A DNA stretch of 64,000 nt, taken from assembly GCA_000091205.1 (NCBI GenBank), contig AP006501.2; one strand, 5' to 3'. Shown in pieces: positions 1 through 62,350 of the stretch (position 1 is its first letter; each line of letters begins with the position of its first letter). The DNA comes from Cyanidioschyzon merolae (Eukaryota). The position numbers and the translations under genes were made by a program. A model generated the notes under the pieces. It ran no database searches. It saw nothing but the letters and a program-made list of their open reading frames with translations, and was not told the origin of the DNA.

Positions 1-1391
1 TCCAAATACTGTTTGAAATGGCCTCCCCGAACGATATAGTCACGGACGTGCGGAAATGCCTCCAATTCGGGTGCAGCTATCATACGTTCGTAGAAGCCGG
101 CGATCCGCGGAACACGCGTACCCACCGGGCGCGTTCGCAATACCAATAAATGCGTACATCCATCCGCAAGAGCGCTTCGAAAGGGGATTGCTTCGAAAAG
201 AATCCCGTCCGCGTAGATATCGTCACCAATGGGAACGAGCGGCCCCGCGATGCCTGGAACCCGCGCGCTCGCCCTGAGGCACTCGCGCAGCTCCGCGTAG
301 GTACGGAACCCGTCGAACGCTACACTACGTGCGTGCGTGAGGCTGCTCGCCACCGGTCGGAGCGGCTGCACCGCATTGTTTTGGGCGAACTTGTTCCAGT
401 CTAATGGTTTGATATGAACCATTACTTCATCGAGAAGAAAGTCGAGATCGAGCACCGGTCGCGTCCGGCTTGACGAACGTAACGGTTGCCAGAGCGCTCG
501 CTTATTGATGAAACGATCGTTCGCAATATCCTCAAAGTAGACAGACGGTCCATAACCTGGTAGCTGCCGCGCAACGACGTAGGCACCGCAGATAGCCCCG
601 GCGGATGAGCCGAAGATCACATCAAAAGCGTCCGCGAACCCGAGGTATCCCAACGCAGCACACATCCCAGCGGCAATACTCCCGCGCATACCACCACCTT
701 CGATGACAAGTCCAATGCGGTAGGGATCGTGGCGTTGTCCGGGTCGCGAGCCGTGTGCTCGTCGTTGGTGCAGGGCCATTAACACCGGATCATCTGCGTA
801 GCTTTGCCAAGGATGATGCGGTTTGTTGGGGGCTTTTTCCCGCTGCAGCAAGAGACGCGGAATGAGACTCAGACTGGCGATGCGTGCTCGTCGCAAGAGC
901 GCTGTACGCAGGGGCGCTCCTGGTGCTGCTGGTGCTGCATCACTTGATGTGGCTGTCTTGTTAGCGCGAGTCGCCGTCTTTGGTGGTGCCGGGTTCGGCT
1001 GCTCCAAAGCCGCTTCCGGTTTCAGCGCGAAAACGAGAGCGCCTCGAGCAAGAAACTGCCGCTGGATAGAGAACCTCGTAAGCAGCCTGGACTGTTCACG
1101 TGCTCGGTTGCAGGCGTTGCTCTTGGGCCAGCAGCTGTGCCTCGTCTTTCCAAAAGCAAGGCTAGTACCCTGGAACTGAAAGCTCATTCGTGACAGCGGC
1201 CGTTGCGTGGCTCCAGTAGACGCTTCCGGTTCGTCCAAAGTGACTCGTGCTGCAAGGATATGAGCGCTCATTCGTGGCGGCAGTGATAGCGTGCTTGCCG
1301 AAGATGCATGTTTCTTGTACAAAACGGCTCGTGCTTCTAGGTGGCGCTCGAGCGACTGCCTGCTGCCGTCAACTGCACGCTCTCTCGCCAT
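1..1391 (-). CDS. patatin-like phospholipase (PNPLA family), 3' end runs off window start
   Basis: Hand translation of the minus strand gives an open frame from the stop at 1503-1505 down to position 1. It contains GGGMRG (oxyanion hole), GSSAG (GxSxG nucleophile) and ADG (catalytic Asp) in patatin order. Candidate start ATGs at 1391, 1271, 1187 or 779. The ORF track omits it because it has no in-window stop. Confidence 0.6.
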   Translation of the reverse strand, partial: MARERAVDGSRQSLERHLEARAVLYKKHASSASTLSLPPRMSAHILAARVTLDEPEASTGATQRPLSRMSFQFQGTSLAFGKTRHSCWPKSNACNRAREQSRLLTRFSIQRQFLARGALVFALKPEAALEQPNPAPPKTATRANKTATSSDAAPAAPGAPLRTALLRRARIASLSLIPRLLLQREKAPNKPHHPWQSYADDPVLMALHQRRAHGSRPGQRHDPYRIGLVIEGGGMRGSIAAGMCAALGYLGFADAFDVIFGSSAGAICGAYVVARQLPGYGPSVYFEDIANDRFINKRALWQPLRSSSRTRPVLDLDFLLDEVMVHIKPLDWNKFAQNNAVQPLRPVASSLTHARSVAFDGFRTYAELRECLRASARVPGIAGPLVPIGDDIYADGILFEAIPFRSALADGCTHLLVLRTRPVGTRVPRIAGFYERMIAAPELEAFPHVRDYIVRGGHFKQYL

Positions 1392-1878
1392 GCGCAGTCC
1401 ATCTACGACCAGTGTCAAACTTGAGCCTGTATGCTTGTTGCTGGATGCTCGCGCTGCTATCCGCACAACGAGCACCCTCCTGCGGATTGATATGTCTTTG
1501 TTCTACAAAGGTTTTCCGGACACTGCCTCACGCTGGACCCGTTTCTGTCGAGAGCCGTGCCTGCTGCTGCCAGCGCACTTGGCTTCGGATCTGGACGTGT
1601 TGGCGCAACCGCATCCGGCACCTGCTCTCCGTTGGCAGGAAACGGCGGGCTCGAATGCTCGCCTCCATCGCTGTGGTTGTGGAATCGACACGTCTCACGG
1701 GATATGCGGATGCGCGAATGCTACCGATATTTAGCCAAAAGAAGTAGATCCTTGGCAGTTGCTCCTGTACCCAACGAGGCCCAGCATGGTCGTCACGTCG
1801 CGCTCGGCGGTTCGATCCGGCGACAAGCCTGGAGCAACGCTTGGCGTGGGCGCTTGTCGCGCCGCTACATCTATGACT

Positions 1879-3247
1879 GATGAAAAGCGAACACTCAAGT
1901 GCGTATTCTGTTCCCGTCTTTGAGGTTTGTACGAAGTTGCTTTTTAGGTGTACAGCCTCGGCGTTCAAAGTGCAGCAACAAAGGGTCACGGATGTATGTA
2001 TCGTTTTCGAGGATGCTTGGTTGTGGTTTCGGAGCGGCGCGTTAGGCGCCTTGCACGCGGAATTCGCGACGTCATCGTAATCAAGACGATTCACAAAGCC
2101 CTGGAACAGCGCTTCGTAAAATAACCGGTCTTGTTATCTAGTTCATACGTACGAGACCGGGCTCTTCGCCCTTGCTTCCGTGTAACACGCCCAATTCACG
2201 CATGCTTCGAGTTTTTGGTCTATCGGTTTCGATGCCATATGTTGATGCAGCAACTCGTGCCGCTGCGCGGACGACGAAAAGCACCCGGCAACATGTCTCG
2301 ACGACCTCTGCACAAGCGCAAGCCGGACACACACTGAACGTGTCACGCCAAACAATCCGTGCTGTTCGAAAGCCAAATCCTCTGATCTGAGTGGCGATCA
2401 ACGGAACGGCATGCCACAGCGGTAGAATGATACCTGGCACGGAACGCGACTGCAGAAGCACCCGTCGCCTATGTTTGCGTAGGAGCGGGTGCTGGACCCG
2501 GACTGGACTGATCACAGCGATCGACTCGGGTGGAGCGTCGACGGATCGACGTCTCTCGAATTGGTTACAAGCCTGGATTCTGCAGTCTGTAGGTGTGTCA
2601 GCATGGACGCCCTCGTACTCCACAACCTGTTTATCGAATGGAAGAGCGTGCGCTTGCGTGTGCAGGTTACGGAGCACTCGCCGAGGCGATCGCCCGGACG
2701 TGGCAAGTGGTGTTACGGTACGGCACCAGGCGCGTAAACGGGGGATAGCACCGAGGGCAGCTTTCTGTACCAGCCACGAGCACGTACCGATCGACGAGGC
2801 AAGCGTTCACGCACCGCACAGAGCAGCCCTCGGAGGACAAGGGCGACAAGCGCGAGAAGAAGGAGGAAGATTCTTGGATGTTCGGTAACGTCCGACCGCA
2901 ATCGCGTGTCACCGTTGCAAAGCGCGCACCGAGCTAGCGTACAACGAAGCTGAACACGGCAAGAGAAGCGTCGATCGCCAACTCCGTCTGGGTGTCAAAT
3001 GCGTCGACAGCAGCCGGAACCCGCGAAACCGGAACCAGAACGCTACCACCAACATCCTTCGAGTGCTCACAAGGGAGCCATTTTGGAATGAAAGACCTGC
3101 GCACCTGACTCTGGAGACAGACGAGCGGTACCGGAAGCAGTCCCCGACAGCCATTGCCGCAGACTGTATCGATGCCATCGGGACGAGACCCAGTCCTGAG
3201 CGGATCCGCTTCTGGAAGTGAATCTGTCCAATTGTGCTCTAAATTGG
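1879..3247. repeat. left arm of 1369-bp inverted repeat flanking PGRL1
   Basis: Track ORFs in 2131-3402(-) recur almost residue-for-residue as ORFs in 4804-5982(+), e.g. 2909..3178(-) vs 4935..5204(+) with one R/P difference. DNA boundaries were located by hand alignment of reverse complements (outer at 1879, inner at 3247). Confidence 0.9.
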
Positions 3248-9303: not shown

Positions 9304-12300
9304 TTGAAAAGTTTTCCTGGTCTGGTGCGAGAATCTTCATTTATGGTGGCGGTAGGCAAGTTTCTCGTGAGGAAAATCCGTAGTTTTTTTGGCGCGGTTG
9401 ACCGCGCGCTCTTCTTCATTACGTGTTGGATCTCCGTGAACCCGGTACGCGAAACGAGCCTCTCTGAACAAGACGAGCTTGTCGATGGAGGAAACCTATT
9501 CCTGACTCGGCTGGAGAGCGGCCTAGAACCGAAGCTACGTCATTCTTCCGTACAGAAGATACGTGGTGATGAGGCGCTAGCTGGAGGCATCGCACCTGGG
9601 CACGATGTGTCAACCAAAGGGACATGCTCGGGGCCACATGACCTGCCCCAAAAGCCAAGTGATGCCGCGCGTTTTCCAACGTTTCGTGCTGCGCAGAAAG
9701 CGACGAAGGATGGACGGGGGCCGTCTCTCGACAAGCACCCGGTTGTGGACGGACGTTCCTCGCCAGCTGCGCACGGCGCGCGACCAAAGCATGCGCGTAC
9801 CCCCACGAGAAAAGTGTGGCGCCAACATCGCTTTCGACGTGTCGACGCTGATGCTGTCGACGATGCTTATCCCAGAAATAAAGCACCGGCTGCACCGAGC
9901 GAGACATTTTCCCGTACGGACACCAAGCAATGGATCCGAGAAATCCGGGATATCTACGCGAGTCGTATTTCGTTTCCGCGGCACAAGTACGAGGTATTCC
10001 GCCCTTCGCAGCTGAATTTTGTAGTCATCACGCTTTGGGGGCTCATCTTTGTAGCGGTAGCGCTCGTGATTGCTGTCATTATTTACACGCGCGCGGTGAA
10101 CTCCGATTACTTTCTTTATTCAACAACGTTTCTCTATGTGGCAACAATTGGCAGCATGACCGAATCTGCAATATCCCTTCTGCTTTACCTGTTCTTCTAC
10201 GCGCGAGTCGCCCTGGTGCCGGCACGGGAACGCACACGCATCCAGTACGTCATCGCTGCGATGACGCTGGTGCTCTTCTGGCAAACTGAGCCGTTGACTG
10301 CTCTGCTCCGACTCGCTGATAAGGGTCGACTGACAACCCGTGTGCCGCGAGTAGTTGTCGCGTTCCAGTTAGTAGGCAACTCTGCGTTTTACATCGGTAC
10401 CATTGGTTTCATGCTTGTTGTCTGCCACCTTTACCGAATTCGCGAAACGCTGCCTCTTAACTGGCTGATCTTCTTGGGTCCCAAACTTGTTCTCGTTTGC
10501 ACACTCCTGGCGCTCAGCTTTGTACTGTTTTTCGTTGGTCGTGTGATGCCGTCACGCTTGCCGTTGCTGTCGCTCATCGCTCTAGCTCGTGCGGGACGCG
10601 CAACAGGTCTCTGGGCTCGGAAAGCACTCAGCATCGTTGCGGTGCTTACGTTGTGTGAGCTCTACGCGCTCGTTGCGGTCCTGTACGAGATCCGCCGCAC
10701 CTGGCGCTGTTTGAACACAGAGCCGTACACCACGTCGCGGGCGCGACAACTCGGATTCCGGCTCTTTCTCTACACCACCGGCTTGGCGTATTTTGTTTTA
10801 TGGATACTCTTAATCCTTATTGTTTCCATTTGTCCTATGAGTTTCAGTATCGCTTACTACTACATCATGCTCTCATATGATCGGCTTCCATCCTTCTACA
10901 CCGACAACAGTCGAGTAGAACGCTTTCTTGCCTCTGTTTACTTCAATCCGCTCTTTTCGTCCTCTCTGTACTTTATTCTGAATTCCATCACCATCGCGAT
11001 AATGATTTGCAATGTACTGATTTACTTGCCTCCGGAGACACCCGCACTGTTCGCGAAAATCGTCTGTTGCCTCGCTACGAGCCGCAAAGACGTTCTGTCT
11101 AATTATCTGTGTTGTCGCGATGAGCCGCGACCGTTCTTCCGCTGGGGTCCACGCCAAACCTCCCACGGTACCGTAGATGCACCGCCGTCGATCGCTTCGT
11201 TGCCAACTGGACAAGGCGTGACGCGCTGCGACGCATACCCGGTCTCGTGTCCGATCGAGGCTCAAGTACAGGCACCGAACATCATGGCACCGGTGGGTTC
11301 TTCAAAGCCCGTTGCCGGAACTTCATTGGATACGCTGACGACGAATGATGCCACCATGGCGAGCACCAACGAAAACCAGTTGCATCGGGCTCAAGCAGGA
11401 CTCTGGAAGCCCAACGGGGATACGCCCTCGAGAGACTCTGGTACTGCGGGCGCATTAGCAACCCGTATACCCGTGTTGCGACGCTACGTGTTCTCTGTCG
11501 AGACCATGGTGGAGCAGTTCAACCTATCGTGGCTCGCCTACGTTCTAGATCCTGCAAGGTGCTCTGGGCGTTTCATCCAGTCGCAACGTTTCTGGCGCGA
11601 CTCGCTTGAACTCTTCTACGACGCCGCCACCGATACGCTGGGATACATCCTGGAGGCCGACGATCGCATCGTTCTTTCGTTCCGCGGGACTCGTTCCCGC
11701 CGCAACCTCCAAACAGATATGCAGACTCGTCTGGTGCCTCTGCGCTTCCCGAACGGGGATATGGATCACGCTCTCTATCAGTACCTGCTCCGTTGCGGAA
11801 AGTACTACAATCGAAAAGATGCCCGCTGGAGTCCAGTAATGCACATCTCCGATACGGCACTGCGACTAGAGCGGTACCTTCGATTTCGCGCTCGCTCCGA
11901 CCGACCGCGGGTGCACGAGGGTTTCCTTGCCAGCTACCTCACGTTGTGTGAAGCGCTTGAGCGAGCGCTGACCCAGCGCTATCAAAGGAATCCCCGGCCG
12001 GTGCTCATCTCTGGTCACTCGTTGGGCGGGGCACTCGCGAACCTCGCTGCGCTGCATCTCGCCATTCACCTGCAGCTTGGTCAAGACTCGTTGATGTTGA
12101 CGACCTTTGGCTCACCACGAGTAGGCGACCTCCATTTTGCGCGACTGCTGGACTATTTGGTGCCCATTCATTTCCGTGTGACGAATGCTGCCGATGTTGT
12201 GGCACGGCTGCCGTTCACGGGCCTCGGTGGATGGTTCGCCTGCGGGGGCGCAGCGTACGCCCACGCTGGAGTCCAGGTGCTCTTGAACAAGCATGGACTG

Positions 12301-28481: not shown

Positions 28482-28622
28482 GTGTGCCATAGGAGTGTGG
28501 TATAGGCGTGTGTGCCACAGGAGTGTGGTATAGGCTTGTGCTATAGGAGTGTGTGCTATAAGGGTGTGCTATAGGCTTGTGCTATAGGCTTGTGCTATAG
28601 GCTTGTGCTATAGGGCGTGTGC
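28482..28622. repeat. minisatellite, ~11 copies of a 12-13 nt unit gtgtgctatagg(c/a)
   Basis: Direct read ...ggcttgtgctataggcttgtgctataggcttgtgctatagg... with degenerate copies upstream. Confidence 0.88.
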
Positions 28623-30499
28623 AATGAAGGTAGAGCACGGAGCAGGCGTTTGGTTTCTGTATGTCGACGTGTTTTCCGGGCTTCTTGTACCTGTCCAGTC
28701 CTGGGAATGGAAATGCAATCGTAAGTTCATTCGAATTGATTCATAGGTCGAGGATGCTTGGTGGTGTTTTTGGAGCGAGTCCTTGGACTGCATGCAGCTG
28801 GAATTCGTTGCGTCACCAGGATCAGGATGATTCGCAATAGAAGAGACAAAGAGCTAGGAAACTGACCGATATCATGATCCAGTGTTTGCGAAGACGTCTC
28901 GGCTCTTCCTGTTTCCTTACGTAGCGTATGTTGAAAAATCACGCATTGTGCACGTTTTTGATCGGTCTGTTTCAAGGCTAGTCATTGCCACAGCACTGCG
29001 CGTCGCTGGGCTGACGAGGAAACGAAAACTCGACTTGGTGCACTGGCGAGTGCTTCACAAGCTCATGGCAAAATTTCACTGAACGTGTCATGTCGAATAA
29101 TTATCGGATTCGTTCGAAGGACAAAAGCTCATTTTTTTGTGACTATTGACGAAACTGGATTCGACATCCGTACGCTACCGCTTACGAGATATGCAGGCAG
29201 TGGTTCTCGTCTCTTCTAATTGCATGGAAATTGGTCTTGGATTAGCACGTGGGTCATTGCGTCGATTGGCTCGAGTGGGGCGTGCGTTACCGCGTTCCAC
29301 GATGAGCAGGTAGACGGATCGAACTTGCTAGACTTGATCTCCAGACCTGACTTTTCTTCCCACACTAGTTTCAACACAGACAGCACCGCTTTCCACGAAT
29401 TCTAACTCATATGGGACATTGTGCGCTCGCATATCCAGCTTACAAAGTACTCAGCATCGGATTACCCAAAAGGAGCTCGTCATTGGAGGGCACGGCACCG
29501 GGTACGGAAACGGAGGCGGACATCGAATGGAGTCCTCTGCACCAGACATAAGCATGCACAGAACGATGAAGCATCCCGTCGCGTGTCAACGAGCAGACCT
29601 CACCGGAGCAGGTGCCGTGGACATAATGGAATACCTGACCAAGGTCGAGTGTCGACGGTTCTCCAGCGCACCAAAGTTGTATACAAAGATGATGATGAGA
29701 CTAGCAAGCGGTGCGTAGCTTGCAGCTTTTGCGAGTGCATGAAATGCATGCACAACAGTCCGAAGGACGGGAAAAGAGGACAAAAATACCGAAACGAGTT
29801 ACTAACAACCAACGTGCTACCAGTTTCTTTCCTCCTCTTCGGTGAGCGTTACAAGAGGAAAAAGTTTTCCCAATTCTCAAAAGGTTACCATCTAGGCGGA
29901 AGGTCTCGCGAGCCGGACGAGCCTGCCGGGCATACGCTCTGTGCGCCTCTGCAGCGACCGATGCTGTAGTGAGATCGCCGCTGCCCTTCGGCAACGCAAC
30001 TCAGTCTGGGACTCGCAGCGAGTATGCTGCATTTCAGCGTCGCGCAGGTCGCAGAGGACCCCTAGCATATCGCATCGCGCTGTCGCAGGCAATACGTCTT
30101 TCTGCGCATCTTGCAGGCTCCCTGAATGACAATAAATCCCGATTCCATGTCGTGCAGAACACGCTTCGAGCCGGCGCCCTCAGCGGTATGACAACGCCGT
30201 TCTGTCTCCGTGATGCATCGGCATCAGCGGTGTAAGCGTTAAGGCGCGTGCTCGAAGTGGCACTCGGCGCACGATAGAACGTACGAAACGAACAATATAC
30301 CCAAAACGAAGTACAAGTAATGGAACTAGAAGGTAGGTGCTTCATCATGGGCGATTTCCCGAAAGCCGATACCTATCCCGCAATCTGGGATCCATGGTCC
30401 AGTTTAGACGTTTTGTCATCGGAAAACGAATCGACGCTTAGCGAGCGCACCTAGGAGATCTGGCAGGCATGAGACACGACGCGTACGGTGCCGTTGTTG

Positions 30500-32958
30500 A
30501 AGGGAAACGCGATTTTGATCAGTAGCGTGTTATTCAGCTGGAAAAGTTGGATTTCCGTTCAGGACGTAGCAACGTATAGTTTTTCAGTTCATTTGTGTTT
30601 CAAAACTCAAACAAGTCTAGTCAAGTGTTTTTTTCGTAGTATATTGGAGAAGCGTTCACAGAGTGCTTCTTTTCAAAAAAACTAAAAGAAAAGGAAAGTT
30701 ATGAAAAACTGAGTCGACGATCCTGGAGGCCCAGGGTCGCTGGCTGCCGGAGATGAACACATTGTTTCGAGTCCAGAAGAAAGAGGAAGAGAAGAAGAAC
30801 CGAAAGAAGGAGGCCCGACGCCAATGGCAGCAAGAAAGACGACGATACGACGAGATGGTGGTGAAAGCCTGTCTTCTTAATTATATCAAGGATCTCTACA
30901 AGCACAAATTGCAAGAGGACATCCAAAACCGTGTCGACTCGTACTCTAAGAGTATTGTCAAGGCCTCGTCAGGACTGATGCATTTGGCGAGGGAGATGTA
31001 CGGAGACGTGGCGCACATGGAAACGGTCGAGATTCCTGACGAGTTTTTCGACATGACCTTTCTTCGTCACCTGATGCTTGGTACAGCGAAAGCGCGGAAG
31101 GAAAATGTGCTAGTGCATGCCCTCCACGAAAACTTCGCGGAATTCCGCTTCGAGGGTAATCGATACAGCGGTGACGGAAATATTTACACCTACGGGCGAT
31201 GAAGTACCTCACGAACCTGAAGAACCATTTGACGATGAACCTCAAAAGTTTCACGATACGTTCCGTGTTTGGACTCTACCCGGACCCATATCGCAAAGGG
31301 ATATGGGCCATCATCAATGGCATCACGAACGATCGCTTTCATGAACAGGAGATCGAATTCTTCGACAAGAAGACATTACACAGGAGAAAGAATGAAGCTT
31401 CTGTGATCTGCGCGGTCATACAAGAGTACCATGCAGTACTGGGGCTGGCGAATCCAGCAGACAAGATATCAGCTACGAAAAAAGATAAGAAATAATGTTA
31501 TCACCTTATCCTGCGCTATTTTGTGTTTTTGGACCGAGAACTCGAACGCAAGGCCGAAAGGCAGCTGAGTGGGGGAAAATGAAGAGTTGTTGGAACGGAA
31601 GGCTGCCCTGATGGGGAAGTGCTTCAACGTCGTTCCGTTGTGCAGCATCAAGTCACATTTTGTGAATATCGACTCCGGAGTCCTTCATGGCATCGTGAGA
31701 GAGATCAGTCCGGAGTTCGATGTAAGGAAGATAGAGTCCACCGACGAAATGCGGGAGACGTTCTAGAAAATTATCCTTAATTTCAAACGTCTCAAAGTGA
31801 GCAAGCAAAACATATTCACTGGGATGATCGAAACCGATGGAGTAGCCATGTGTGTACACTATCGGCGGTTGAAAACAGATCGGCCAGTTCCGTCCTCGGC
31901 TTCGCCCGTGACGAAGGATGAGGAAAACAAAGAGGTGGATCCTGCGACGCAGAAGGTGCATGAGAACGACTTTGTCGTTGGCGCACACCCCGGAAACACA
32001 AATATCGTAACCATCGCTGTGCCCAAGCGTCCGGTAGATGGTACTGACGGCAACTTATGTCAGAAAGACATGCGGCTTTTAAAGCTCTCGAGAGCGAGAT
32101 ACTATCGAGAATCCGGTATGATGAATGGAAGAAAGAAAACTGAGATATGGAATGCAGGATTGAAAGAGCACTTGGGAGCTTTGAGCGAGGTGACGAGCCG
32201 CGGAACGGACTTTCAGGCTTTTCTGAAATTCATGGAAGTTCGCTTTGCTCATTGGGAGGCGCTGTGGGAGGAGTATGCAAAGCCCCGGTGGGCTCGTTTG
32301 CGTATGAACTTGTATTGTGGTAAGCAGCGGGCGTTTGCCAACTTTTCAATCAGTTGAGTGCCTTGAAGGAGGATCAAAGTCAGAGGTTCGTTGTGGCATA
32401 CGGAGCAGGGCGTTGGAAGACCCAAAAAGGTACTACGCCAGCTCCAACGACGAGAACGTACAAGGAGTGTGCACGGCGTTTCGTTACGATACCTGTATGT
32501 GAGTTCCGAACGTCCTATACATACCATGAACTGGGCTGTACACTTCAGAGAGTGGAGATAGAAAAGTGCCAGAGGAGCCCCGAGGATATAGCAAAGTGCG
32601 GACCGCTGACGGAAGAGCAAATGGAAAGGAGGGCGAAAGTTCGTGGCCTACTCGCATTAGTAAGTACAACTCCCAACGGCAAGAAACGGATGGAGTTTGT
32701 TAACCGAGATTTTAACGCCGCTATCAATATACGGAGATGCGCGGTGATGGAGAAAAGACCTCCAGAGCTGACAAGTGAGAATTTTGTTGGACAATCTCTT
32801 AAAGTGGAACTATATGAGAAAAAATTTGAACCAGCCGTGGGTGGCCGGTCGAGAAGAACGGGGAGACGACTGCACGTTAGACGGAGACGTCTTGTCTAGG
32901 GCGGGTTTCTCGCCACTACTGTAAACCGCTTGCGGCAGCGTTTTTCTTTGAAAGGCGT
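30500..32958 (+). mobile_element. TnpB/Fanzor-like (OrfB-family) element relic, copy A, inside an AT-rich island
   Basis: Five consecutive same-strand ORFs (30753..31202, 31199..31495, 31569..31766, 31797..32357, 32354..32899) together encode a ~680 aa protein. It has a K/R-rich NLS-like N-terminus and a C-terminus ...KCQRSPEDIAKCGPL...KRMEFVNRDFNAAINIRRCAV, the Cys-rich finger plus RDxNAAxNI RuvC-III motif specific to TnpB/Fanzor. Local GC is well below flanking DNA. A 3' block of ~60 nt beyond the stop is shared with copy B and ends near 32958. Confidence 0.55.
30753..32899 (+). pseudogene. disrupted TnpB/Fanzor-like nuclease gene
   Basis: Segments are joined only through a frameshift at 31199-31202, a frame change between 31495 and 31569, a single in-frame TAG at 31764-31766 and a 1-nt frameshift at 32355-32359. 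The last is shown by copy B reading straight through the homologous spot (GQQRELAAFVQSAHPETRLQ). No GT...AG pairs restore the frame. Residues that would align to RuvC-I/II (GAHPG, GAGRW) appear substituted. Confidence 0.55.
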
Positions 32959-33052
32959 GCGGTGGTATCACGTGCACAAAGCCACACGCTATTGCCTTCT
33001 CGTGCGTGCTGCGTTTCAATATTTATAGCCGAGTTGGCCCGCTTCGATTCCG

Positions 33053-35391
33053 TTGCTGAAGCCGCGGTCGATAAGCGCAGAGCTGATGAGCGATGTTTCG
33101 CTCCAAGGTGCGGAAAACGTCTCTCCTGTGCGTGAGCAGTTTCAGCAGCCTACGTCTAGTGCAGCAGATCCGCGAGAGCCCGCGGTCGGCAGCCGAGACT
33201 CAGCCGGCTACCCCCGAGAGCACAACGTTACCCCAGGTGTTCGGTCTAGTTCGGGTACGCAGCATGAGCGTCAGCGGACTGCGGCTTTAGCGGCCTGTGT
33301 TCGAGCGCTCGGCTGTTTCGGTGGTGCGCGAAACTCTCAATGGACGCAGGCCCAGGCGAAGCGGGAAACGACGACAGGCGCTACGGACCAATCAGCGGAA
33401 CCGTCGGTCCCGTGCGAGTCGAAAGTCGGGTCAGCAGTTGCGACTGAAAATACTGAGGACGTGCTGGGTGCTGTTGACGGCGACCACGGCGCCCCGGCCG
33501 ACGTGGACGCGGAGCGTTCTTCAGAGGTTTCTTCGGCGAGCGAGGAGCTTCCATTTCGCTCCCTGTATCGGCGGGCGCAGGTGAAATGGGCCCGCCGGCG
33601 ACTCGAGAAGCAGGTTCAGAAGCTGCTTGCATTTACCTCCACACAGCTTAGTAACCTGCAGCATGTTCGTTCCGGACAAAAGTTGGATGCCGAGTTTGCG
33701 ATCCTCGCACGAATATATACCAATGCACATATCGACGAGGATTTCGCAAGGTTTAGTCGTCAGGAGTTTCGAACCTTCGCGGAGCACTTGCCGCTGTTTC
33801 TGAATTACTTGTTGCATTCGCGGCCGCTCGATGCGCCGGCGACGAGCGCAGCGCAACGCAACGCCTGGCGAGAAGTTGCCTCTTCGACGAGAGAGCGCAT
33901 CCGCCGCCATCAGAATACTCGCAAGCTAATCGAGACGCATTTGTTGCGGCGCTGTAGCGAGTCTGTGCGTTTCGCCCTATTTGTTTATTGGTATTTGGAT
34001 GGTTGTCTGCAGCTTGGACCTGAATCGGACCGGAAGGATACCCTCCGAATTATTATTGAGATTGAGAACATCATGTCGAGGAGCATCACATGCGCGACGC
34101 CCTCTTCACAGGTCGCTGGGGCACGCCCCCCGGTCAAGTCGTTCATGGCGTCGGATACGCCGGACGCGGCGACAGCGGACTCGGCCCCGGCGACATGGAG
34201 CCCCGGTGCTGCGCTTGCGGCTCCCGCCGGTGAAGTGCTCAGCCCAGCAGACGCTGCCGACGTTGGGTCTGTTGAGAGGATCGTGCACCAGCGCGCGATC
34301 GTCCATGAGATCGGTAACGAGTCTCGAGGCGAGGGCGTCTTCAGAGATCGCATGCTGCAGGATGAGACATGTTTGGCAGGCATCCTACCTGCAGAGCATA
34401 CGATCGCAGTGGATCTCGACGCGGATGCAGCTGACTGTGCAGTGCGCTCTGCGGACTGCAGTTTTCCAGAGGCGCCTGGCGTTCAGTCAACGACAGAACA
34501 AGAGCCGCGCATGCTCGCCCAGTCAAGCTTGATGTCGAATACGCGCGTTTTTCCACGAGAATCCATAGAAACTGGCCCTGAACGGGAGATAAGTTTCGCA
34601 TATGTTTCCCGTGGTAATCTTTTTCATGCACAGCTAGATTTTATGCGCGCGCTCATATCCATCTCCGAATTGGCGCTAGGCCTGAATCGATCGCAAAGAT
34701 CACGATTCGTCGTGAGGGAACTAGGCCGCCTGAACGCGCTTGTGGAAGCAGAGCGGCGATATGTTTTTCTGCCAACGGAGCGCATTCCACACCGGGTGCT
34801 TCGCATCCTCGCAGACGAGTCACATGTGTTCTCGACAAAGGAACATGCGCCGTACCTGGCCATTGTCGAAGTGCAGGATCTGGAGTCAACCAAGCTCGCA
34901 GAGCGCGAGCCCCGCAAGACATTGGCACGCACCATTGGCGATTGGCTGCATCGGGCAGGAGAGTATCGCCCGCGAGCGCCCCGCTCCGAACAACGACATA
35001 CAATGACCTGGTTCGCTTCACCACGCGGCACCGAAGCCGTCAAATCCCCTGAAAGCGGTCTCGCAGCAGCAACATCACCAGCGACGACTCCCGATCCACC
35101 GACAAGCCCAGCGTCGCGAAGCGCACCCGCTGTCGATACGCCTTCACCTGCAGGAGAGGAGCTTTCACAGAGCCGTGGCGGGAAAAACGCCTCCGTGTCC
35201 GAGAAACGCAGTGCACGCACGCGATTGCACGCACAGGAGCGTCACGCACGGAATCGCGCCCTGCATGGCGTCGCGAATGCGGCGGCGCATTCACTGACGT
35301 TTCCTGGCCCTAATCAGGCGGAGGCACCGTTCCCATTCTCAACGCGAACAGGCACGGATGCCGCTGAGCTACCACCGATGACCCATCGGTC

Positions 35392-44949: not shown

Positions 44950-47900
44950 TTTTCAAGGTCAGTGCCGATCCAGTGATATCCTCGAAAGCGAGCTTGGTCA
45001 GATGATCTGCGCTATGGACACCGACAGGGAAAAATAGTAATGCGTTTGCAGCGCTAAACTATTGACGTAGAGCAGATCGTCTCAGAAAGAACGCCTCCTG
45101 GGCACTCGGTTTCACGTTCTATGAGGTGCAGCGCTATGCGCACGCTTAAGTTATGGTGACTTGAGCGTCCAGGTTCACACTGATCTGCCAAGAACAGTTT
45201 CACAGAACAATACGTGCAACCGCAGTTCTTTGGGGTAAAGAAAGCGTTGCCCCTCAAAAGCACCTATACGTACCGTCTCGGAACGGTGGACGCTATCCCG
45301 CCTGCCGATAATAACCACACACTCAGGAAAACACTGGCTCGCGGAGAAGATCCGACACACACACACACACCCGCTGCCCAAAGAAAAGCGCGTATCGTCT
45401 GTTGAACAAGTCGCGCACGTACAACCCGCGTGCACGCATTCGATACGCGAAGCGCTGCATGGATCTTCGCCCTGCCAGTCGGGGGTGTATGTTGGATAAT
45501 CTTCGAGCTTGATCAGGGATACCTGTGCTAGGCTCTGGTGCTTTTTTCCAGCGTATGCGGCTGGCGATACACTGCATGCGTTTACGAGTCGAGCCTCCAC
45601 AGCGCCGGCGCATGCGCGTCCACGGAGGTGCATGCGTGTCGGGGTTGCATGTGCGTTACACGTACACCCTTGCGCGACGACGTCCATGGGCGTCTACGGT
45701 AGGCGTGCATTCAGGGAGCTTGCGTATTTATCTGCATATCAAAGTTAAACTGGAACAGGTGGACTTGCGAACTCGAGGGTACACGCTGACGTTTGCATCA
45801 CGTCGTACTGTCCTTCAAAACAGAGTGTGCGGGATTTCGTTGGGACTGCTCCTGTTTCCTGTCGCTTACATCCAGCTGTGAACAGGCCGGATTTTTTTTC
45901 TAGAAGCGATCGATGCGATATCCAAAGTCCATGGCCGTGGCCATTTCGCATCTCAACCGCAGCAATGGGAGCCAATCGGGAGGAATCCGCTTTAGAGGTA
46001 TGGTGCAGGTGCGGAACTCCTTTTCGCTGATGACCGAAAAAGCGAGGAGGAATTGTCTTCGGGACGGCATCCATTATTTGACATGACAAGTTCAGTGAAG
46101 TTTCGGCATGATCTTGTGGAGAAACCGGCCAGGGGTGACGTCGAGTTTTTCGTTTTCATTTTCAATCCAGTTGCGCTGGCTGCTGCGTCCGCGAGTTGCC
46201 TCGCAACAGCAGGATCGGAAACTTGTACAGTGCGGCATTCGAATATGTGACACGTAAAGCAGCGGAGAAGCGTAGAGCATTGCACCTATGCATTGAATAA
46301 AGACATCAATGAAATTACGAGACTTTGTCGGAAGGTGTCGCAAATGACCCTGATTCCGGTGACGTAACGGATTCCAGCGGTATGGCGAGGAAGCGGCTAC
46401 CCCGGAGAAAAAAACGACCGAGAATCCCAAGACTTTGCGTACATCCATAAGCCGTTATTGTTGCGCTTCAAATGACGAGACCGAACGTCTGAGAAAAATT
46501 CGAAAAATCGAAATACAGAAACAGAGCGAGCAGTTCAGTGTTCCATTTCCATCCGCCGCAAGTGGAGATGAACAAATGCGCTCATTTGCGGGTGATCACG
46601 GTGCGAGACATCCAGCCGGTTTGGTGTAGGTTTCGCGAAACCCGCACGAACGAAAGCAAGCTACTGTGATTAGCTGGAGCGTTCGAATTCCTCACTGAGT
46701 AGCGATTTGCCGTGTTTCTCGACAGCATTTCATTCCACGATGGCCGTCGAATCGAGCACGTCCGATAAGACCTTCTCCGCTGCTCGATTCTCAGTGCACC
46801 ATTCTTCCAAGAATAGAACCCTTCTCTTTCCGGAATCCGTCTCCACGCAGGTCACTAGTTTCTGTCAGCGCGGCGTGCCCACTGCTGTGACACGGGGAAC
46901 AACGCTCCATGCTGCGGCTCCATGTTTTTGACATTCCCCGTACCGATTCTTTCGACCATGCCGAGCACGCAGATTTTCAACGATGGACTCAGCGTCGGAT
47001 TCGAGAACTATAAGGAATATCCAGTATGGCGCAGTAAAGTAATGAGCTTTCGATGAAATGGTAGGTAAGCGTCCTCCTGCTTCGGGGACAAGGTCTAGAA
47101 TTCATCTTTGGTGCTGCAGCTTCCGCAAAAAGCGCGCATGCCATGATTGTCCAGGGACTGTAGACCTGCCAATTCTTACGGTCTTACAAGTCAATTTTGT
47201 TTCCGTACTGCCAGATATCATCGAATGCTTTTTCGCAGTGTATAGCAGGAAATCGAATTCGCGATTCAACGCACCGTATACATCGGAGAAGAATTGCCTC
47301 CAGGATATATATTCTTTACTGAACAGAGCGAGCAGGACTACGCCCCTTCTTCAGGTCAGTCATACTATAGTTCTCTCATGATTGAAGAGCACTGAAAGAT
47401 ACAAATAGATGCACTTTGCCCCAAAAACCGATATTCTGACAGCGTGCCTGCTGTCAGTATGCAATATACGACACCGTGATCACTTTCTGGGGAACGCAAA
47501 AGCGAAGATCGTGGTCACCACGGGCGTCTGCACAGTTCAATAGCTTGTTCGTGTAGTCCTGGAAACACTGAAATACAGTTGCAAAAGAGTCCAGGTTCAC
47601 GCATGGCCATCTTCCACCGAAATTGCAGCAACTAGCGCGTTCCCCGGAACTCACTGCCGAATCTCGTGCTACCGCAGACATTCCATCGAGAAGCGGTCTG
47701 GACTGAGGCTTCAGTGTGGACCCTGTTCGGGAGACGACGGCACGCCTGGGCTGGCGGCGTCTGTTGCTTTGCACGACAGGCGAAGAGGTATCGTTCTATT
47801 CGGGAGACGGTCTCATCAGGCGGGGGGCGGACCACGCCAAAACACACGCTGGATAGCGGCAACTGAGGCGTGCTCGGCTCGCAACCAGCGTACGCCCACA

Positions 47901-48218
47901 GCACGTTGTCGCGTACGTTGAGCGCTGGACACTCGTCGGCGCGAGACTTGACCTTTGGACGCTCGTGTGTGGACCGCTACCCACCGACTAGACAGTTCGT
48001 CTGGTCGTGGGTCGGAAAGCAACGTGCGTACTGCGTACCGACGCGGCTACGTGCAGACAGTTGCAAGCGTTCTCGTAAGCGCTTGCGGGGTCAGAGGCAG
48101 CCGTTTCATCCCCGGCTTTTTAGTCACAAAAAAACTTTACGTTTTGAAGAGGAGGAGGGGTAGGATCCAAGAACGTGTCTGGTACAACTAAAGCCGTCCT
48201 GTTACCAGCGAATCCAAA

Positions 48219-54077: not shown

Positions 54078-57000
54078 CGACGGGATGTACGATCAGTGGC
54101 TAAAGTTCGCCAAACTGCAGCCAAACTGCCCGTTCAGAGTTTCCACCAACGCGAGGCGCTCCCGTCGCACGTACCGGCCTTGTGCAGTCCAGTGGATGTG
54201 CCAAGGCAATCAACTCCCCGAAGCTTGACAGGTCGACACTCGAACAAGACCCGCCCCAGAGAAGCATAAACCGACACGTGGACAAACCTTCGCGCTCACT
54301 AGCCTCCTCAAACCAGCCTCAAACACTTGAGCCTCACAAGAAAGGCTCCCGCGTTTACGACTTTAAGCCTCAGCAGCGAGAGAGGCACCGTGGCGTGTCA
54401 AAAGCGTCTTGTGTAGCGTTTTGTTCGAACACGCACGCACGCAGCCGAAGATCGAGCACGCACACATCTGAACCGCGATGCGTGCGGACGTAACGTGACG
54501 CATGCTTGCGTGACGACACGAAAAGCGACGCGCCGGCCGCCGCGCCTGTTGCGCGCTTGGCGCGCTCAAGAGCGCTGTCCCAATCTAGGACATAGAGGAC
54601 GCCTTTCCAGGCGGCTTCTCTGCGCCATTCAGTTGGCGGCTGCGCGGTTGCGGGTGATGTTTTTCGCGATTCCATTGGCCAGGGATCTCTGATTCCGCGC
54701 TTCGCATCAGCGCGCAGTGAAACAGGTATCGTACCATGGCCTGCTTCTAAGTTGCACGATCCGTACTTTTTTTGTCGGAGATCGTGGTTGTTGTCCGCGT
54801 TCTGTCGTACGCTGCGTGCATGCCGTGAGCGTTCGCAGTGAGCCCTATTGTGCCGCCACGGTCGCAGCACGGAGACAAAGCGGCTTTGCTACAGTCCTGA
54901 GGGCCTCGGCTCGAGGCGTGCTGCCTGCGCGAATGCTCCAAAAACGGGTGTCAGGCGCGTCAGGTATCGGGGGCGTCTCGAACAACTGCGGCTGTGCGAA
55001 GCAAGTTTCCCTTTGGACACCTTTTCATATTAATGCGAAGAAAACTCTGGGCGCTGCCCTCGTTCAGTGTGGCTTTGGCAGTAAAGTATCTTGCGTTCAT
55101 GGTTCTTTCACGCTAATTATTACTTTGCTGTATATACCTGGATTCATTGAGGAAATAGTACTTTCTATTTAGCAGTTATTCTTTGACCTAGGCTATTTTT
55201 AGGGCTAAACAGCTGCAGCAGTCTCGTTTGCATCTATTGAATCGAAAGCTCCATGTCCGAAACTTCAAAAGCAGACTTGGTTGACGTTTCTGCAGCGTCG
55301 TACCTCTCCAGACGCGGCACAGATGAAACGTACAGTTCTGCAGTTGGCATTGTGGTTGCTGCGCGCTTGTGGAGCATGTTTCCGGGACAGGTGCGCATGG
55401 TTCTCATGCGTGACGTCCGATCGAAGGGAACGCGCTCGAAGGAGACGGAAGCGCGTTTGACGGAGGAATATGCGGATGTTGTTGCACCACGTTATGGGAC
55501 GGAAGAAAAGTTCATGGCAAACCTGTGGCTCTTGCGATGACCCGAACTAGGTGTAGAATGGTCTCGGTATGCTGGTCTGCAGTGGACAACCGGCGGGCTC
55601 GCTTCCTTACTAAATGTAGTATGGAATATATCCTGAGAGAAACGAGTAGGGTCCGATACCAGATCTGCTTAAAGTGTTATGGTGGTTACTTCTGCTGCGA
55701 AGCGCTCGCTGGCAAGTCGTTTTCAAGTATGCTGCAGAGCGCGAACTCTATTCTGGACTCGGTGCTGCTTCTGTGTGCTACAAAACGGATCTAGAAGCTC
55801 TCCGCATTCCACTGACTTCGACATGGCGTGCTGTACCCCAACTGCAACCAAGCGTTTGCGAAAGGTTTCGCGTGCTGCAGCATGGGAAACCCAAGTGAAC
55901 AAAGCTGAGTCGATCGCAGAATCCGTACATGATTTGGATCCATCGGCGATAATATCTCGCCACGTGAAATCAGAAGATACTTTATGGGAAGCGCTGTGAA
56001 GTCGAACGGCCAGTTCTAGCGTCCCGGAGCATGAAGAGACACACATACGGGATGAAAGCACCTTCCTTGCAGGTCGTAGACTGCCGCAAGTACATGGCAT
56101 CGGCGTAAGGTACGAATACCTCCCGTTTTTTATGATGCTGGATCCATACGTCAAAGCAGAATCCCCCGTACTGGGAACGGTGCCGATAACCAGGGCCGGG
56201 ACCCCCGCTCGCCTCAGCCGATCCACCGCACCACAGGGTCACCTCGTGTATACCCTCAGAGCCACACATTGGACCGATCTGGTGAGTTCATCCGCACCGG
56301 GCCTCCAGAGTACGCTCGCCAGGACACACGATACACCTTTGAAGTCGTTCACACAGGTGGACAGGACGGCTTCGCGCTGCCTTTGCTGAAATTCGTCCAA
56401 GGGCATATCGCCTGACCCTCTCCAGGCACCCAAATCGCGTTGGAGCACGTATTGCAACTCGCTTAATCTCGCAGAATCTCACCGAGCGCATCCCGCGAAA
56501 AACACACTTTGCATCTTCAGATCAGCGCTACCTAGCAGAGCTGAGGTTCATTCTAGCACATTCTAGAATGTCATTTGGCGAGAGGACGCTTTGTCGGAGC
56601 TCTTGTAGAAAGCGCCCCGAATTCAGAATGCTCAACTTTGCAGCGCAAACACTCGGGAGAGCGCCGAGCCCGTCGCTTGTCCGTGCAGATACAGGTCTCG
56701 GTGTTCATGCTCGCAGCGGCTCCTGCAGCTTGACTTTCCGCAAACTCGCACCGAACCAACGGTGTAAACTCGGTCTCGACAACGGATTCGGCCACTGTAC
56801 TTTTGTACGCGTTTTTCCTTGCATCCGAGTTCGAAATGGGTGTAACACTCAGCGGCACGGTCGGTGAACGGTACCTGCTGTTGGAAAAGCCAACGCACGC
56901 TGCATCTGGTTTCGAATATGCTCGACTGCACCACTCTCGCCGCAGTCTGAATTCATAAACAGCTACGCTACACGATTGAATCTGAACGGAAGCCCGACCG

Positions 57001-61079: not shown

Positions 61080-61307
61080 GTATCTTCCTCGTCCGAAAAT
61101 CGCAAGCGCAATTCGAATCAAACGGAAACGCGAGCAGCAGAAACCCAGGAAACGATGTTGTTGCTGGTGATGAACGCGAGACGCAGTGCGGACCCTGCAC
61201 CAGCACGCCCTCGACATCTCGTATGCCGCCGTCCATCAAAGCGTTTCCTGCTCTCCGGGCAATGGCAGTGCAAAGCTACGAAATCCGGATTCGCTGACGA
61301 CAGCGAA

Positions 61308-62350
61308 CGCCTTTCTAAAGTCGAAAGCAGTCGTCAGCGATACAGTGGTGGCGGCGAACGCCCGCCCTAGACAAGACGTCGCCCACTGATGTGCAGAGGC
61401 CTCCCAGTCTTTCTCGACCGGCCACCTACTACTGCTTCCAACTTTTTCTCATGTAATTCCACCATGAGAGGTTGTCCATGAAAATTCTCTCTCGTCATTT
61501 CTGGGGGTCTTTTCTCCATCACCGCACATTTCCTTATATTGATAGCAGCGTTAAAGTCTCGGTTCACGAATTCCATACGTTTCTTGCCATCTCTGGTTGT
61601 ACGTACTAATGCAAGTAGTCCTCGAACTTTCGCTCGCCTATCCATTTGCTGCTCCGTCAGCGCTCCGTATTTTTTACAATCCTCAGTACCCCGCTGGCAC
61701 TTTTCCACAGAGACCCTCTGAAGTGTACACCCCAGCTCATGGCGTATGTATGACGTTCGGAACTCATCTACAGGTATCGTAACGAAACATCGTTCGCACT
61801 CCCTGGACGCTCATTCCGAGTCGCTGTAAACCGGAAACGAAACTCTCCTCGACAAGCCATGAAAGTGGTGTTGTGGCTTTCCGCCAGACACGGTGGCTGT
61901 ATTTGCCGTGCCCGTGGCCCTGCAGGCGTGTTTCGGGGTGCGCTGACTGCACAAAAGCGGCGAGTTCGCGCTGCTGCCCTAGTATCTGGATGCTGGCGAC
62001 TCCCCGGCACAGATACCTTACGATGTGCGGACGGAGCATGCTGCTTCAGCACCGTAAGAACGACGCGCTCTCATGCGCGTTCCCTTGTGATCCAAGATAT
62101 GATCCACAGAGTGATAGTGGCGGCTAGCACGGAGCGTCTTCCGCATCGACTGCCGATCTGGGAACTGCGGCCCAGGGTTCGGAGTTTCACGTCACGAATG
62201 GTCCATACGCTCACGAGCGGTACTCGAAGCGGGCGCGCTGGACATTACACACTGCTTTGCTGCACGAGAACAGTGCTATGCTCGGGGCCGGCTAGAGTAC
62301 CTAAAGAAAAGTCAGCGTGAACGTCGCTTGCAGGTACGGTGCATGCCACG
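61308..62350 (-). mobile_element. TnpB/Fanzor-like element relic, copy B (3' fragment)
   Basis: ORF 61367..61708(-) encodes ...KCQRGTEDCKKYGALTEQQMDRRAKVRGLLALVRTTRDGKKRMEFVNRDFNAAINIRKCAVMEKRPPEMTRENF...GRRLV*, ~80% identical to the copy A C-terminus. Upstream frames still show homology (GQQRELAAFVQSA, VWRKATTP) with stops and frameshifts. The ~60 nt after the stop (tctagggcgggcgttcgccgccaccactgta...gaaaggcg) is conserved with copy A, then diverges at ~61308 into the XPO1 3' flank. The upstream limit (~62350) is approximate. Confidence 0.55.

Follow-up and report, generated by a model that had tools for sequence, protein, structure and literature searches.

The DNA analysed here, a stretch of 64,000 nucleotides from Cyanidioschyzon merolae referred to as the window, encodes four proteins that match the C. 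merolae 10D proteins BAM82852/53/66/69 exactly, and the genes flanking the locus under study are eukaryotic nuclear genes (PI4K, exportin). Homologues of the PI4K protein, at 51–58% identity, pointed to red algae. Same-strand ORF pieces at this locus together encode a protein of ~730 aa of the Fanzor type. The initial annotation had recognized the run of ORFs, the K/R-rich N-terminus and the RuvC-III signature, but put the length at ~680 aa. Translation starts at 30701, not 30753. The AT-rich island that it described was also found, with a GC content of 0.49–0.50 at 30001–33000, compared with 0.585 just downstream and 0.55–0.58 over most of the window.

Alignment to the CMe-1A consensus (taken from supplementary file 2 of PMC3627910) placed consensus positions 660–3169 on window positions 30445–32957, with 85.4% DNA identity over 2521 alignment columns. 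CMe-1A is a Fanzor1 element of C. merolae (Bao and Jurka 2013, Mobile DNA 4:12; Repbase), with ~150 copies each ~80% identical to a ~3-kb consensus, no TIRs, and an ORF published as a single exon under the table entry '734 (1)' (PMC3627910); according to its authors, a few copies are intact. The element is already known, having been described in 2013 as a repeat family of the same genome, contrary to the uncatalogued status that had been implied. The core may start ~16 nt earlier than the aligned consensus, near 30429, and its span is 74–83% identical to ~80 metagenome copies; a metagenome scan recovered 242 relatives of the element. The extent first given as 30500–32958 becomes about 30429/30445 to 32966, with the addition of a rearranged module upstream (Table 1). 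No convincing TIRs or TSDs were found around the element, the ORF list contained no transposase ORF in or beside it, and Rfam and tRNA scans of 29000–33500 returned nothing relevant.

The 5' part of the copy is arranged differently from the published consensus. TE-N2_CMe is an unclassified 635-bp C. merolae repeat with ~70 copies, and the CMe-1A consensus begins with this sequence. A TE-N2_CMe-like module in the window is joined to the Fanzor core by an A-rich linker (30422–30428) and matches TE-N2_CMe, but its 618 bp are reversed relative to the core; the orientation is opposite to the consensus here and agrees with the consensus in ~35 metagenome copies. The mismatch of the copy with the canonical CMe-1A architecture arises because this 5' module is inverted, and we would class the locus as a CMe-1A copy of rearranged or variant type. 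A T-run precedes the nominal 5' end of TE-N2 in nearly all copies, which suggests that TE-N2 may be an A-tailed element annotated in reverse.

The locus and CMe-1A have in common the host genome, the single-exon 734-aa ORF, the set of motifs (GADPG, VVAYGAG, VDEFRTS, and NRDFNAAINI) and the lack of TIRs, and the divergence of the locus from the consensus is typical for the family (about 80%). They differ in the inverted module, in the seven disabling lesions of the ORF plus D431H, and in the 3' end, which in the copies reaches 8–15 nt past the last published consensus base and closes a stem. Judged from these sequence comparisons, the segment 30445–32966 is very probably one old, dead CMe-1A copy, with its TE-N2 5' module flipped relative to the published consensus.

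Within the 64-kb window, the full copy of CMe-1A is accompanied by a 3' fragment and by a fragment of TE-N2. The 3' fragment, reported before as copy B, was confirmed; over 61301–61812 it is 79% identical to the main copy, and its 148-codon remnant is free of stops and indels and retains DEFRTS, NRDFNAAINI, and the 3' tail (43 bits with covariance model R1 at 61299–61369).

Table 1. Features of the CMe-1A copy and related fragments in the window.
Feature	Position	Strand	Basis or remark
TE-N2_CMe-like module	29801..30421	-	Consensus 1–618 aligns to 30421->29801; 79.7%, 622 columns
Fanzor-bearing core of CMe-1A copy	30445..32966	+	Consensus alignment and covariance model (3' end 32966)
CMe-1 Fanzor1 ORF remnant (pseudogene)	30701..32899	+	Codon alignment to 734-aa consensus ORF; three-frame translation
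Premature stop TGA, consensus codon 4 (Glu)	30710..30712	+	Consensus alignment; common to L075
+1 frameshift (1-nt insertion vs consensus)	30777	+	Consensus alignment; common to L075
-1 frameshift (1-nt deletion)	31194	+	Consensus alignment; common to L075
Premature stop TAA, consensus codon 266 (Arg)	31493..31495	+	Private to 10D; L075 reads AAA
-2 frameshift (2-nt deletion)	31575	+	Consensus alignment; common to L075
Premature stop TAG, consensus codon 357 (Trp)	31764..31766	+	Consensus alignment; common to L075
RuvC-I, GAHPG (family GADPG)	31980..31994	+	Asp codon 31986–31988 now His
-1 frameshift (1-nt deletion)	32343	+	Private to 10D; L075 retains T
VVAYGAG, strand at canonical RuvC-II position	32390..32410	+	Identical to family consensus, normally without Glu
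VCEFRTS (consensus VDEFRTS)	32495..32515	+	Alternative catalytic Glu kept, 32501–32503
RuvC-III, NRDFNAAINI, intact	32702..32731	+	Asp 32708–32710; motif region FVNRDFNAAINIRRCAV
Structured 3' tail	32897..32966	+	Covariance model R1, 67 bits, E 1e-12
Short TE-N2_CMe fragment	54798..54916	+	Consensus alignment (consensus 140–256, 74%)
Copy B, 5'-truncated CMe-1A fragment	61299..61812	-	Consensus 2665–3169; 86.2% to consensus

Protein family and catalytic motifs

The concatenated translation recovered 46 homologues (E 2e-295 to 8e-34), and the wider family comprised 3979 representatives at E ≤ 1e-3. When a profile of the 46 sequences was compared with the PDB, the significant matches were to Fanzor1 proteins only (PpFz, 1.8e-25; SpuFz, 3e-20; GtFz, 9e-13), with the SpuFz match spanning profile positions 112–598 of 613. 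A nine-sequence profile gave only a weak GtFz1 match (E 0.0016), and a single-sequence phmmer search of the PDB with the window translation gave no match. Pfam searches with the ORF pieces, the concatenated translation and seven close homologues yielded nothing significant, the best match of a window piece being PF07282 (Cas12f1-like_TNB), whose 12 bits fell short of the cutoff of 26.3; this model is matched at E ≤ 0.01 by 20 of the 46 family members. The precomputed Pfam label of the family is DUF8286 only, a name that a literature search found in no paper.

The fold was assessed using P0043, an intact relative ~40% identical to the window protein, instead of the broken window protein. The top seven Foldseek matches of its AF2 model (pLDDT 87, pTM 0.85) in the PDB were all Fanzor1 (E 1e-16 to 1e-13, TM 0.52–0.70), whereas Cas12f and other Cas12 structures matched at E 5e-4 and weaker, with TM below 0.3 on the query. 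Together with the profile matches and the 85% DNA match to CMe-1A, this structure prediction bears out the main reading in the initial annotation, in which the locus was a decayed gene similar to TnpB/Fanzor that came from a mobile element. By homology and predicted fold, the protein family of the locus is Fanzor1.

CMe-1 is homologous by profile to the solved Fanzor1 proteins SpuFz1 (8GKH), PpFz1 (9CF0), and GtFz1 (9CER), and the fold is alike in the intact relative. Both have a split RuvC in which the canonical RuvC-II Glu is lost and a downstream Glu lies in DE[FY]xTS, both have a K/R-rich N-terminus (consensus GKKRKT..., KTKKQKREARRQR; the window remnant likewise), and both are carried on a multi-copy transposon. 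By contrast, sequence identity to the CMe-1 family is only 12–15%, the zinc ribbon of CMe-1 is degenerate, and its element lacks TIRs and an associated transposase. With bacterial TnpB (IS200/IS605) and Cas12f, CMe-1 has in common the RuvC-III signature RDxNAAxNI, the expected origin of a guide RNA at the element's 3' end, the absence of TIRs and a subterminal 3' hairpin; it differs in the lack of a TnpA partner, the eukaryotic nuclear host, the larger protein, the NLS-like tail, and the rearranged RuvC-II. Membership in the bacterial TnpB / IS200-IS605 group was ruled out by the eukaryotic flanks, the missing transposase ORF, and the far weaker Cas12/Cas12f fold matches.

According to PMC10530073, Fanzors have a rearranged RuvC-II, in which the canonical Glu is replaced by an inert residue and an alternative Glu lies downstream. 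The locus has this arrangement, with VVAYGAG lacking Glu and the alternative Glu ~33 residues downstream. In the 46 family members the RuvC-I Asp (D422 of P0043), the alternative Glu (E593), and R661/D662 of RuvC-III are invariant. The catalytic triad of the window copy is incomplete: the RuvC-I Asp is changed to His (D431H), as it also is in L075, an orthologous environmental copy, and the Glu and the RuvC-III Asp are kept. Only 10D has a Cys in place of the Asp before the alternative Glu. The initial annotation had considered the RuvC-I and RuvC-II residues substituted, citing GAHPG and GAGRW; this is correct for GAHPG but not for GAGRW, as VVAYGAG(R) is the family consensus. The failure of the triad belongs to the dead copy, not to the family.

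In the signature of Bao and Jurka (PMC3627910), which defines TnpB/Fanzor, [TS][TS] and RD enclose a C4 zinc ribbon (PF07282 in Pfam). In CMe-1 and in the window this ribbon is degenerate, with two Cys, no CxxC, and no Cys at the canonical positions, and the Cys-rich finger described before corresponds to the degenerate ribbon. The closest relatives keep one Cys only and more distant family members keep CxxC...C..C, a distribution that we read as a secondary loss in a clade of genuine Fanzor1 proteins.

Decay of the window copy

The ORF remnant is 78% identical in amino acids to the CMe-1 consensus over the consensus-aligned codons, and its longest open piece is 186 aa. Relative to the consensus ORF it carries three premature stops and four frameshifts, which makes seven ORF-breaking lesions where four had been counted before, and an in-frame 3-nt deletion at 30759. 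L075, from a metagenome assembly, is 97.9% identical to the 10D copy; five of the seven lesions are common to both and two are private to 10D, and since the split L075 has gained another stop and has had one indel altered. Relative to the consensus, the differences between 10D and L075 divide 28/26 between the lineages, and the divergence is 2.3% in the element and 1.5–1.6% in the flanks; because the substitutions are symmetric and the element diverges more than its flanks, there is no sign of constraint. The 10D copy is a pseudogene drifting neutrally. Gene conversion, considered for the ortholog differences clustered at 32488–32536, is unsupported, as the changes fall in both lineages.

Three other readings of the locus were weighed against that of a decayed copy. 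The initial annotation had raised the possibility of a domesticated, catalytically dead Fanzor. The host might then keep it for a function other than cleavage, for instance RNA-guided DNA binding, and GAHPG is indeed common to 10D and L075 in a locus retained since their lineages split. This reading fails because the seven ORF-breaking lesions accumulate neutrally: the stops and frameshifts leave only short open pieces, both lineages acquired further lesions after the split, substitution is symmetric and faster than in the flanks, and the GAGRW 'substitution' cited for it is the normal family motif. We regard domestication as very unlikely. Just as improbable is a live gene in which the breaks would reflect sequencing errors, introns, programmed frameshifts or RNA editing. 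Introns do occur in some Fanzor genes of eukaryotes (PMC10530073), and the remnant in copy B is open, but the breaks are 1–2-nt indels and point-mutation stops rather than intron-sized insertions, five of them are reproduced in an independent metagenome assembly, and the published CMe-1 ORF is single-exon (PMC3627910). The probability that RDxNAAINI arose by chance in a protein of some unrelated family is negligible. Although the window translation and seven close homologues have no significant Pfam match and only the label DUF8286, the SpuFz profile match covers most of the protein, the fold search agrees, and the element matches a published Fanzor1 element; the outcome that the initial annotation had named as refuting it, a chance motif with no Fanzor match, was not observed. 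The reading of a dead CMe-1A copy is retained below.

In a search for intact copies among 80 metagenome loci, only one near-intact ORF with all three motifs was found (L002), which lacks the first ~25 codons. Nucleotide diversity in the family was 0.160/0.145/0.234 by codon position (p=4e-27), a pattern that shows, at the level of sequence comparison, that the CMe-1 family diversified while the protein was under selection.

The 3' terminal tail

The element ends in a tail of two hairpins, in which stem-loop 1 starts from the stop codon and is followed by a long stem-loop 2 (ACCGC...GCGGT around GCGUUUUUC-UUU-GAAAGGCGU), with the end of the element near GGTGGT. RNAalifold predicted no structure from the raw MAFFT alignment of 44 3' ends; a covariance model (R1) was used instead of the raw alignment because two hairpin variants differ in register. 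The initial annotation had proposed 32840..32960 as a possible omega-RNA scaffold, and the weakly covarying tail at 32897–32966, which overlaps that segment, was recovered with the model, but not from the raw alignment. Model R1 matches 64 copies. In the alignment fitted to this model, from which the pair counts come, paired cells amounted to 78.8%, compared with 32–42% in controls slid by -3 to +2 (66.9% at +3), and the covariation score was 0.167 versus 0.131 (0/500 shuffles). The window's own tail folded singly with a z of only -1.55, and 17 of 200 shuffles folded as well or better. An omega-RNA scaffold overlapping the end of the ORF would be expected to raise conservation there, but the final 200 nt of the coding sequence showed no such increase (majority-base fraction 0.86–0.91, like the remainder of the ORF), and candidate helices within the ORF end showed no covariation by eye in the alignment of 44 3' ends. 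These data argue modestly for a tail that is conserved and weakly covarying and passes the published consensus end.

Fanzors obtain their guide RNAs from non-coding sequence on the 3' side, immediately next to the right end (PMC10530073), and the tail is the leading candidate for the 3' portion of a guide-RNA scaffold or for a terminal recognition signal. Instead of a guide scaffold, the tail may be a cis signal of the copying machinery, for which rolling-circle (Helitron- or IS91-like), single-strand HUH and reverse transcription in trans are candidates, or a structure that marks an mRNA 3' end or a terminator. Among copies, the core start is constant but follows at least four different 5' modules, the 3' tail is conserved, 5'-truncated copies retain the tail (copy B; solo tails in L046, L050, and L081), TIRs are absent (PMC3627910), and the tail of only ~68 nt is shorter than characterised Fanzor guide scaffolds and follows an ORF end without extra conservation, all of which would suit a cis signal. 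Neither the window nor PMC3627910, however, links a RepHel, a Y1 transposase or an RT to the family, and the Fanzors that have been assayed all draw their guide RNA from exactly that position (PMC10530073). We consider this alternative possible but on balance doubtful; the roles of cis signal and guide scaffold are also not mutually exclusive.

Proposed function of the living element

A living CMe-1A element encodes CMe-1, a Fanzor1 protein of 734 aa with a K/R-rich N-terminus, REC, WED, and a split RuvC, whose putative triad consists of an Asp (GADPG), a relocated Glu (VDEFRTS) and an Asp (NRDFNAA). From its homology to solved and assayed Fanzor1 proteins, CMe-1 should bind a guide RNA (omega-RNA/fRNA), the transcript of which would arise at the element's 3' end and extend into flanking DNA, and the CMe-1-RNA complex would then cut double-stranded DNA matching the guide. 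The tail at 32897–32966 may serve as the 3' part of the RNA scaffold or as a terminal recognition signal. The 10D copy does none of this; it carries three stops, four frameshifts and a His instead of the Asp of RuvC-I, and is in neutral drift.

No transposase is known for the family, and any route by which it moves is a proposal. One scenario is that the CMe-1 lineage represents a zinc-ribbon-less Fanzor1 that is still an RNA-guided nuclease, uses the short two-hairpin tail as its scaffold, and spread by Fanzor-dependent copy-and-home without a classical transposase; we think it unlikely that all of this holds. The family lacks a transposase and TIRs, its 5' modules vary, and its 5' truncations are frequent.

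The locus itself matters little, as one of ~150 decayed copies of an element published in 2013. The genome of C. merolae, a compact and genetically tractable red alga, is very poor in transposable elements. The value lies in the family, a Fanzor1 element without a known transposase in a tractable red alga, and its 3' terminal structure provides a concrete RNA or DNA element that can be tested for guide function or mobility.

A dead Fanzor1 gene in a CMe-1A copy

The window is red-algal nuclear DNA, since four of its ORFs (exportin-1 BAM82869, BAM82852, BAM82853, and isocitrate dehydrogenase BAM82866) are identical to C. merolae 10D proteins. ORF pieces on one strand (~30700-32899), flanked by unrelated host genes with a PI4K-like ORF beginning 87 bp downstream, together translate to a protein ending ...KKRMEFVNRDFNAAINIRRCAV.... 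GC content is 0.49-0.50 over 30001-33000, compared with 0.585 in the following kb and 0.55-0.58 in most of the window. In a GC-poorer stretch upstream of the element, a 13-nt unit (GTGTGCTATAGGN-like) is repeated in tandem, in at least six overlapping register copies. Further GC dips lie at 10001-11000 (AT skew -0.295), 45001-48000, and 55001-56000; the last contains a TE-N2 fragment, and the other two may contain additional repeats.

The initial annotation of a TnpB/Fanzor-like gene was correct in substance. The concatenated translation retrieved 46 homologues (E 2e-295 to 8e-34), and the RuvC-III-like motif is therefore not a chance match in an unrelated protein. A profile of 46 diverse family members matched nothing significantly in the PDB except three solved Fanzor1 nucleases: PpFz1 from Parasitella (E 1.8e-25), SpuFz1 from Spizellomyces (E 3e-20, profile positions 112-598 of 613 aligned), and GtFz1 from Guillardia (E 9e-13). 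An AlphaFold2 model of P0043, an intact relative, was confident (mean pLDDT 87, pTM 0.85), and each of its best seven PDB matches was a Fanzor1 structure (E 1e-16 to 1e-13, TM 0.52-0.70), with Cas12 proteins ranking far below. Neither the window pieces, nor their concatenated translation, nor any of seven homologues had a significant Pfam match; DUF8286 is the sole precomputed Pfam label of the family, and Cas12f1-like_TNB was matched by 20 of the 46 members (E<=0.01). Exhaustive profile search of public data found 3979 representatives at E<=1e-3, 482 of them at E<=1e-30.

A Fanzor1 element, CMe-1A, was described in C. merolae by Bao & Jurka in 2013 as ~150 copies, each ~80% identical to a ~3-kb consensus and some still intact, lacking TIRs and having as its 5' 635 bp a separate repeat, TE-N2_CMe (PMC3627910). 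Alignment of the 3169-bp CMe-1A consensus from the supplementary file of that paper to the window showed that the finding is one catalogued repeat copy plus one fragment, copy B, which is partial and 79% identical to the main copy (minus strand, 61301-61812). The element is thus already known to the level of a published consensus from the same genome, and the window copy contains the remnant of a dead Fanzor1 gene.

Coordinates of the element, its lesions, and related features
Feature	Window position	Strand	Detail	Other loci
Fanzor core	30445-32957	+	consensus 660-3169, 85.4%, 2521 columns	
Copy B	61812->61308	-	consensus 2665-3169, 86.2%	
TE-N2 module, directly 5' of core	30421->29801	inverted	consensus 1-618, 79.7%	L001, L018-L022, L028-L040, L051-L076
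TE-N2 fragment	54798-54916		consensus alignment	
Premature stops	30710 TGA, 31493 TAA, 31764 TAG	+	consensus ORF comparison	
Frameshifts	30777 (+1), 31194 (-1), 31575 (-2), 32343 (-1)	+	consensus ORF comparison	
In-frame 3-nt deletion	30759	+	consensus ORF comparison	
RuvC-I	31980-31994		GAHPG	
Alternative Glu	32495-32515		VCEFRTS	
RuvC-III	32702-32731		intact	
75-78-bp unit	31907-31984		single	tandem 2-4x: L002 11223-11371, L007, L012, L014, L035, others
3' tail	32897-32966		67 bits	
3' tail of copy B	61299-61369		43 bits	
Solo 3' tails or 5'-truncated copies	copy B			L046 25-89, L050 24-88, L081 1269-1339
Variable 5' modules	site of 30429-30460			L004, L010, L015-L017, L046, L049, L050, L052, L053, L081, L082
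T-run before nominal TE-N2 5' end	30422-30432			L022, L029, L037, L039, L057, L067, L074, others
13-nt tandem array	28482-28614			

Decay of the reading frame and catalytic motifs

Lesions were called codon by codon against the 734-aa consensus ORF (window 30701-32899), to which the remnant is 78% identical at aligned codons. The ORF had been recognized as broken, with four breaks and a start at 30753; we found seven (three stops, four frameshifts), and the true start is 30701. The orthologous insertion, set in the same flanking sequence, occurs in metagenome contig L075 and is 97.9% identical. Five of the seven lesions are present there too; the 31493 TAA and the 32343 deletion are absent, and L075 has one private stop. 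The 59 differences between the two copies split 28/26 relative to the consensus, and divergence is 2.3% in the element and 1.5-1.6% in the flanks. The element is in neutral decay on both lineages; sequencing error, introns, and domestication, the last raised earlier as a possibility, are not the explanation. The differences are clustered, with 13 in 49 bp (32488-32536) and 7 in 19 bp (30749-30767); simple gene conversion into one copy does not account for these clusters, because both lineages carry derived states.

All 46 members have the RuvC-I Asp, a Glu in DEFRT, and the RuvC-III RD without exception. GAHPG in place of the consensus GADPG is a genuine loss of the RuvC-I Asp, as first suspected. 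The second proposed substitution, GAGRW, is normal: VVAYGAG(R) is the family-wide consensus, seated at the canonical RuvC-II position. Fanzors characteristically lack Glu there and use an alternative Glu downstream (PMC10530073). In CMe-1, the encoded protein, this Glu lies in VDEFRTS, and the window copy retains it.

The "Cys-rich finger" of the initial annotation was overstated: the zinc-ribbon region of CMe-1 has two Cys, no CxxC, and none at canonical positions. Its nearest relatives (P0041-P0045) have one Cys (WC only), and more distant members (P0282, P0289, P0299, P0307) retain CxxC...C..C. The CMe-1 lineage thus has a degenerate zinc ribbon. We also note stepwise C4 zinc-ribbon loss inside one Fanzor1 clade labelled DUF8286.

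A structured 3' terminus

Across 44-56 aligned copies, homology stops ~65 nt beyond the stop codon, close to a GGTG motif. Two parts recur among the individual folds: stem-loop 1, beginning at the stop codon (UAGGGCGGG-UUU-CUCGCC-A-CUA), and a long hairpin 2, whose apex takes either of two mutually compensated forms (CGUCGUUCGA-CUU-UCGAACGGCG and ACGUUUUUC-UUUU-GAAAGACGU) and whose outer stem varies in sequence while keeping complementarity. A covariance model based on 16 of the copies matched 64 places, including both tails in the window. In the alignment fitted to this model, 78.8% of cells were paired, compared with 32-42% when partners were slid by -3 to +2 columns and 66.9% at +3; two-sided changes numbered 32 cells against 19 expected, and the covariation score was 0.167 against 0.131 (0/500 shuffles). 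The suggested covariance analysis thus yielded a covarying two-hairpin tail in the model-fitted alignment, whereas RNAalifold on the raw alignment of 3' ends gave no structure and the last 200 nt of the ORF had no extra conservation relative to the rest. The fold of the window's own tail had a z of only -1.55.

The published consensus ends at ...GAAAGGCG, within hairpin 2. In ~30 copies, pairing with upstream ACCGC/CACCG continues 8-15 nt further (window 32958-32966) and ends near GGTG, placing the real element end ~8-15 nt beyond the consensus, which stopped early because the sequence past its end varies among copies.

Modular 5' ends and family diversification

One core start (CATCGCGCTCGGTGAGCGCACCT...) is preceded by at least four unrelated 5' modules among copies, the 3' tail is conserved despite these differences, and solo tails and 5'-truncated copies occur. 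A variable 5' end with a kept 3' end is seen more typically with copying driven from the 3' end (rolling-circle or retroposition) than with cut-and-paste. No transposase is known for CMe-1A. TE-N2 has the consensus orientation in ~35 metagenome copies and is flipped in the window and its ortholog, an orientation partly common to L014, L064, L036, L024-26, and L032. TE-N2 is either an independent element that has repeatedly landed next to the core or a module that was inverted in situ. In nearly every copy, a T-run (GATTTTTTT) comes before its nominal 5' end (CGATGACAAAACG). Read on the opposite strand, this run is an A-rich tail, which hints at an A-tailed element annotated in reverse; TE-N2 may accordingly be a SINE-like retroposon. 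Its consensus contains a perfect 10-bp subterminal hairpin (CTTTCCCCCT...AGGGGGAAAG), and tRNA and Rfam scans of TE-N2 gave no match.

Among 38 full-length copies, nucleotide diversity was 0.160 at the first codon position, 0.145 at the second, and 0.234 at the third (p = 4e-27); the 5' UTR had 0.247. The lower diversity at positions 1 and 2 indicates that the lineage diversified via protein-coding masters, as previously argued by Bao & Jurka (PMC3627910). Sampled copies are nearly all broken: among 80 metagenome loci, only a single ORF 600 aa or longer retains all three motifs. A 75-78-bp unit (25-26 aa, ...KHEEKKEADPATQEVQENDF...) directly upstream of RuvC-I is tandemly repeated in several loci, giving proteins of differing length (e.g. 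P0001, 752 aa).

Homology with assayed Fanzors (PMC10530073; PDB 8GKH, 9CER-9CF3) predicts that a living CMe-1 would enter the nucleus and associate there with a guide RNA that arises at the element 3' end and reads into flanking DNA, before cutting matching double-stranded DNA with a D/E/D RuvC site. The 3' tail is a candidate for the scaffold of that guide or for a mobility signal. To the published description, the analysis adds modest new points: the precise set of lesions, with confirmation in the ortholog, the RuvC-II and zinc-ribbon corrections, the structured 3' terminus past the published consensus, and the inverted TE-N2 module.
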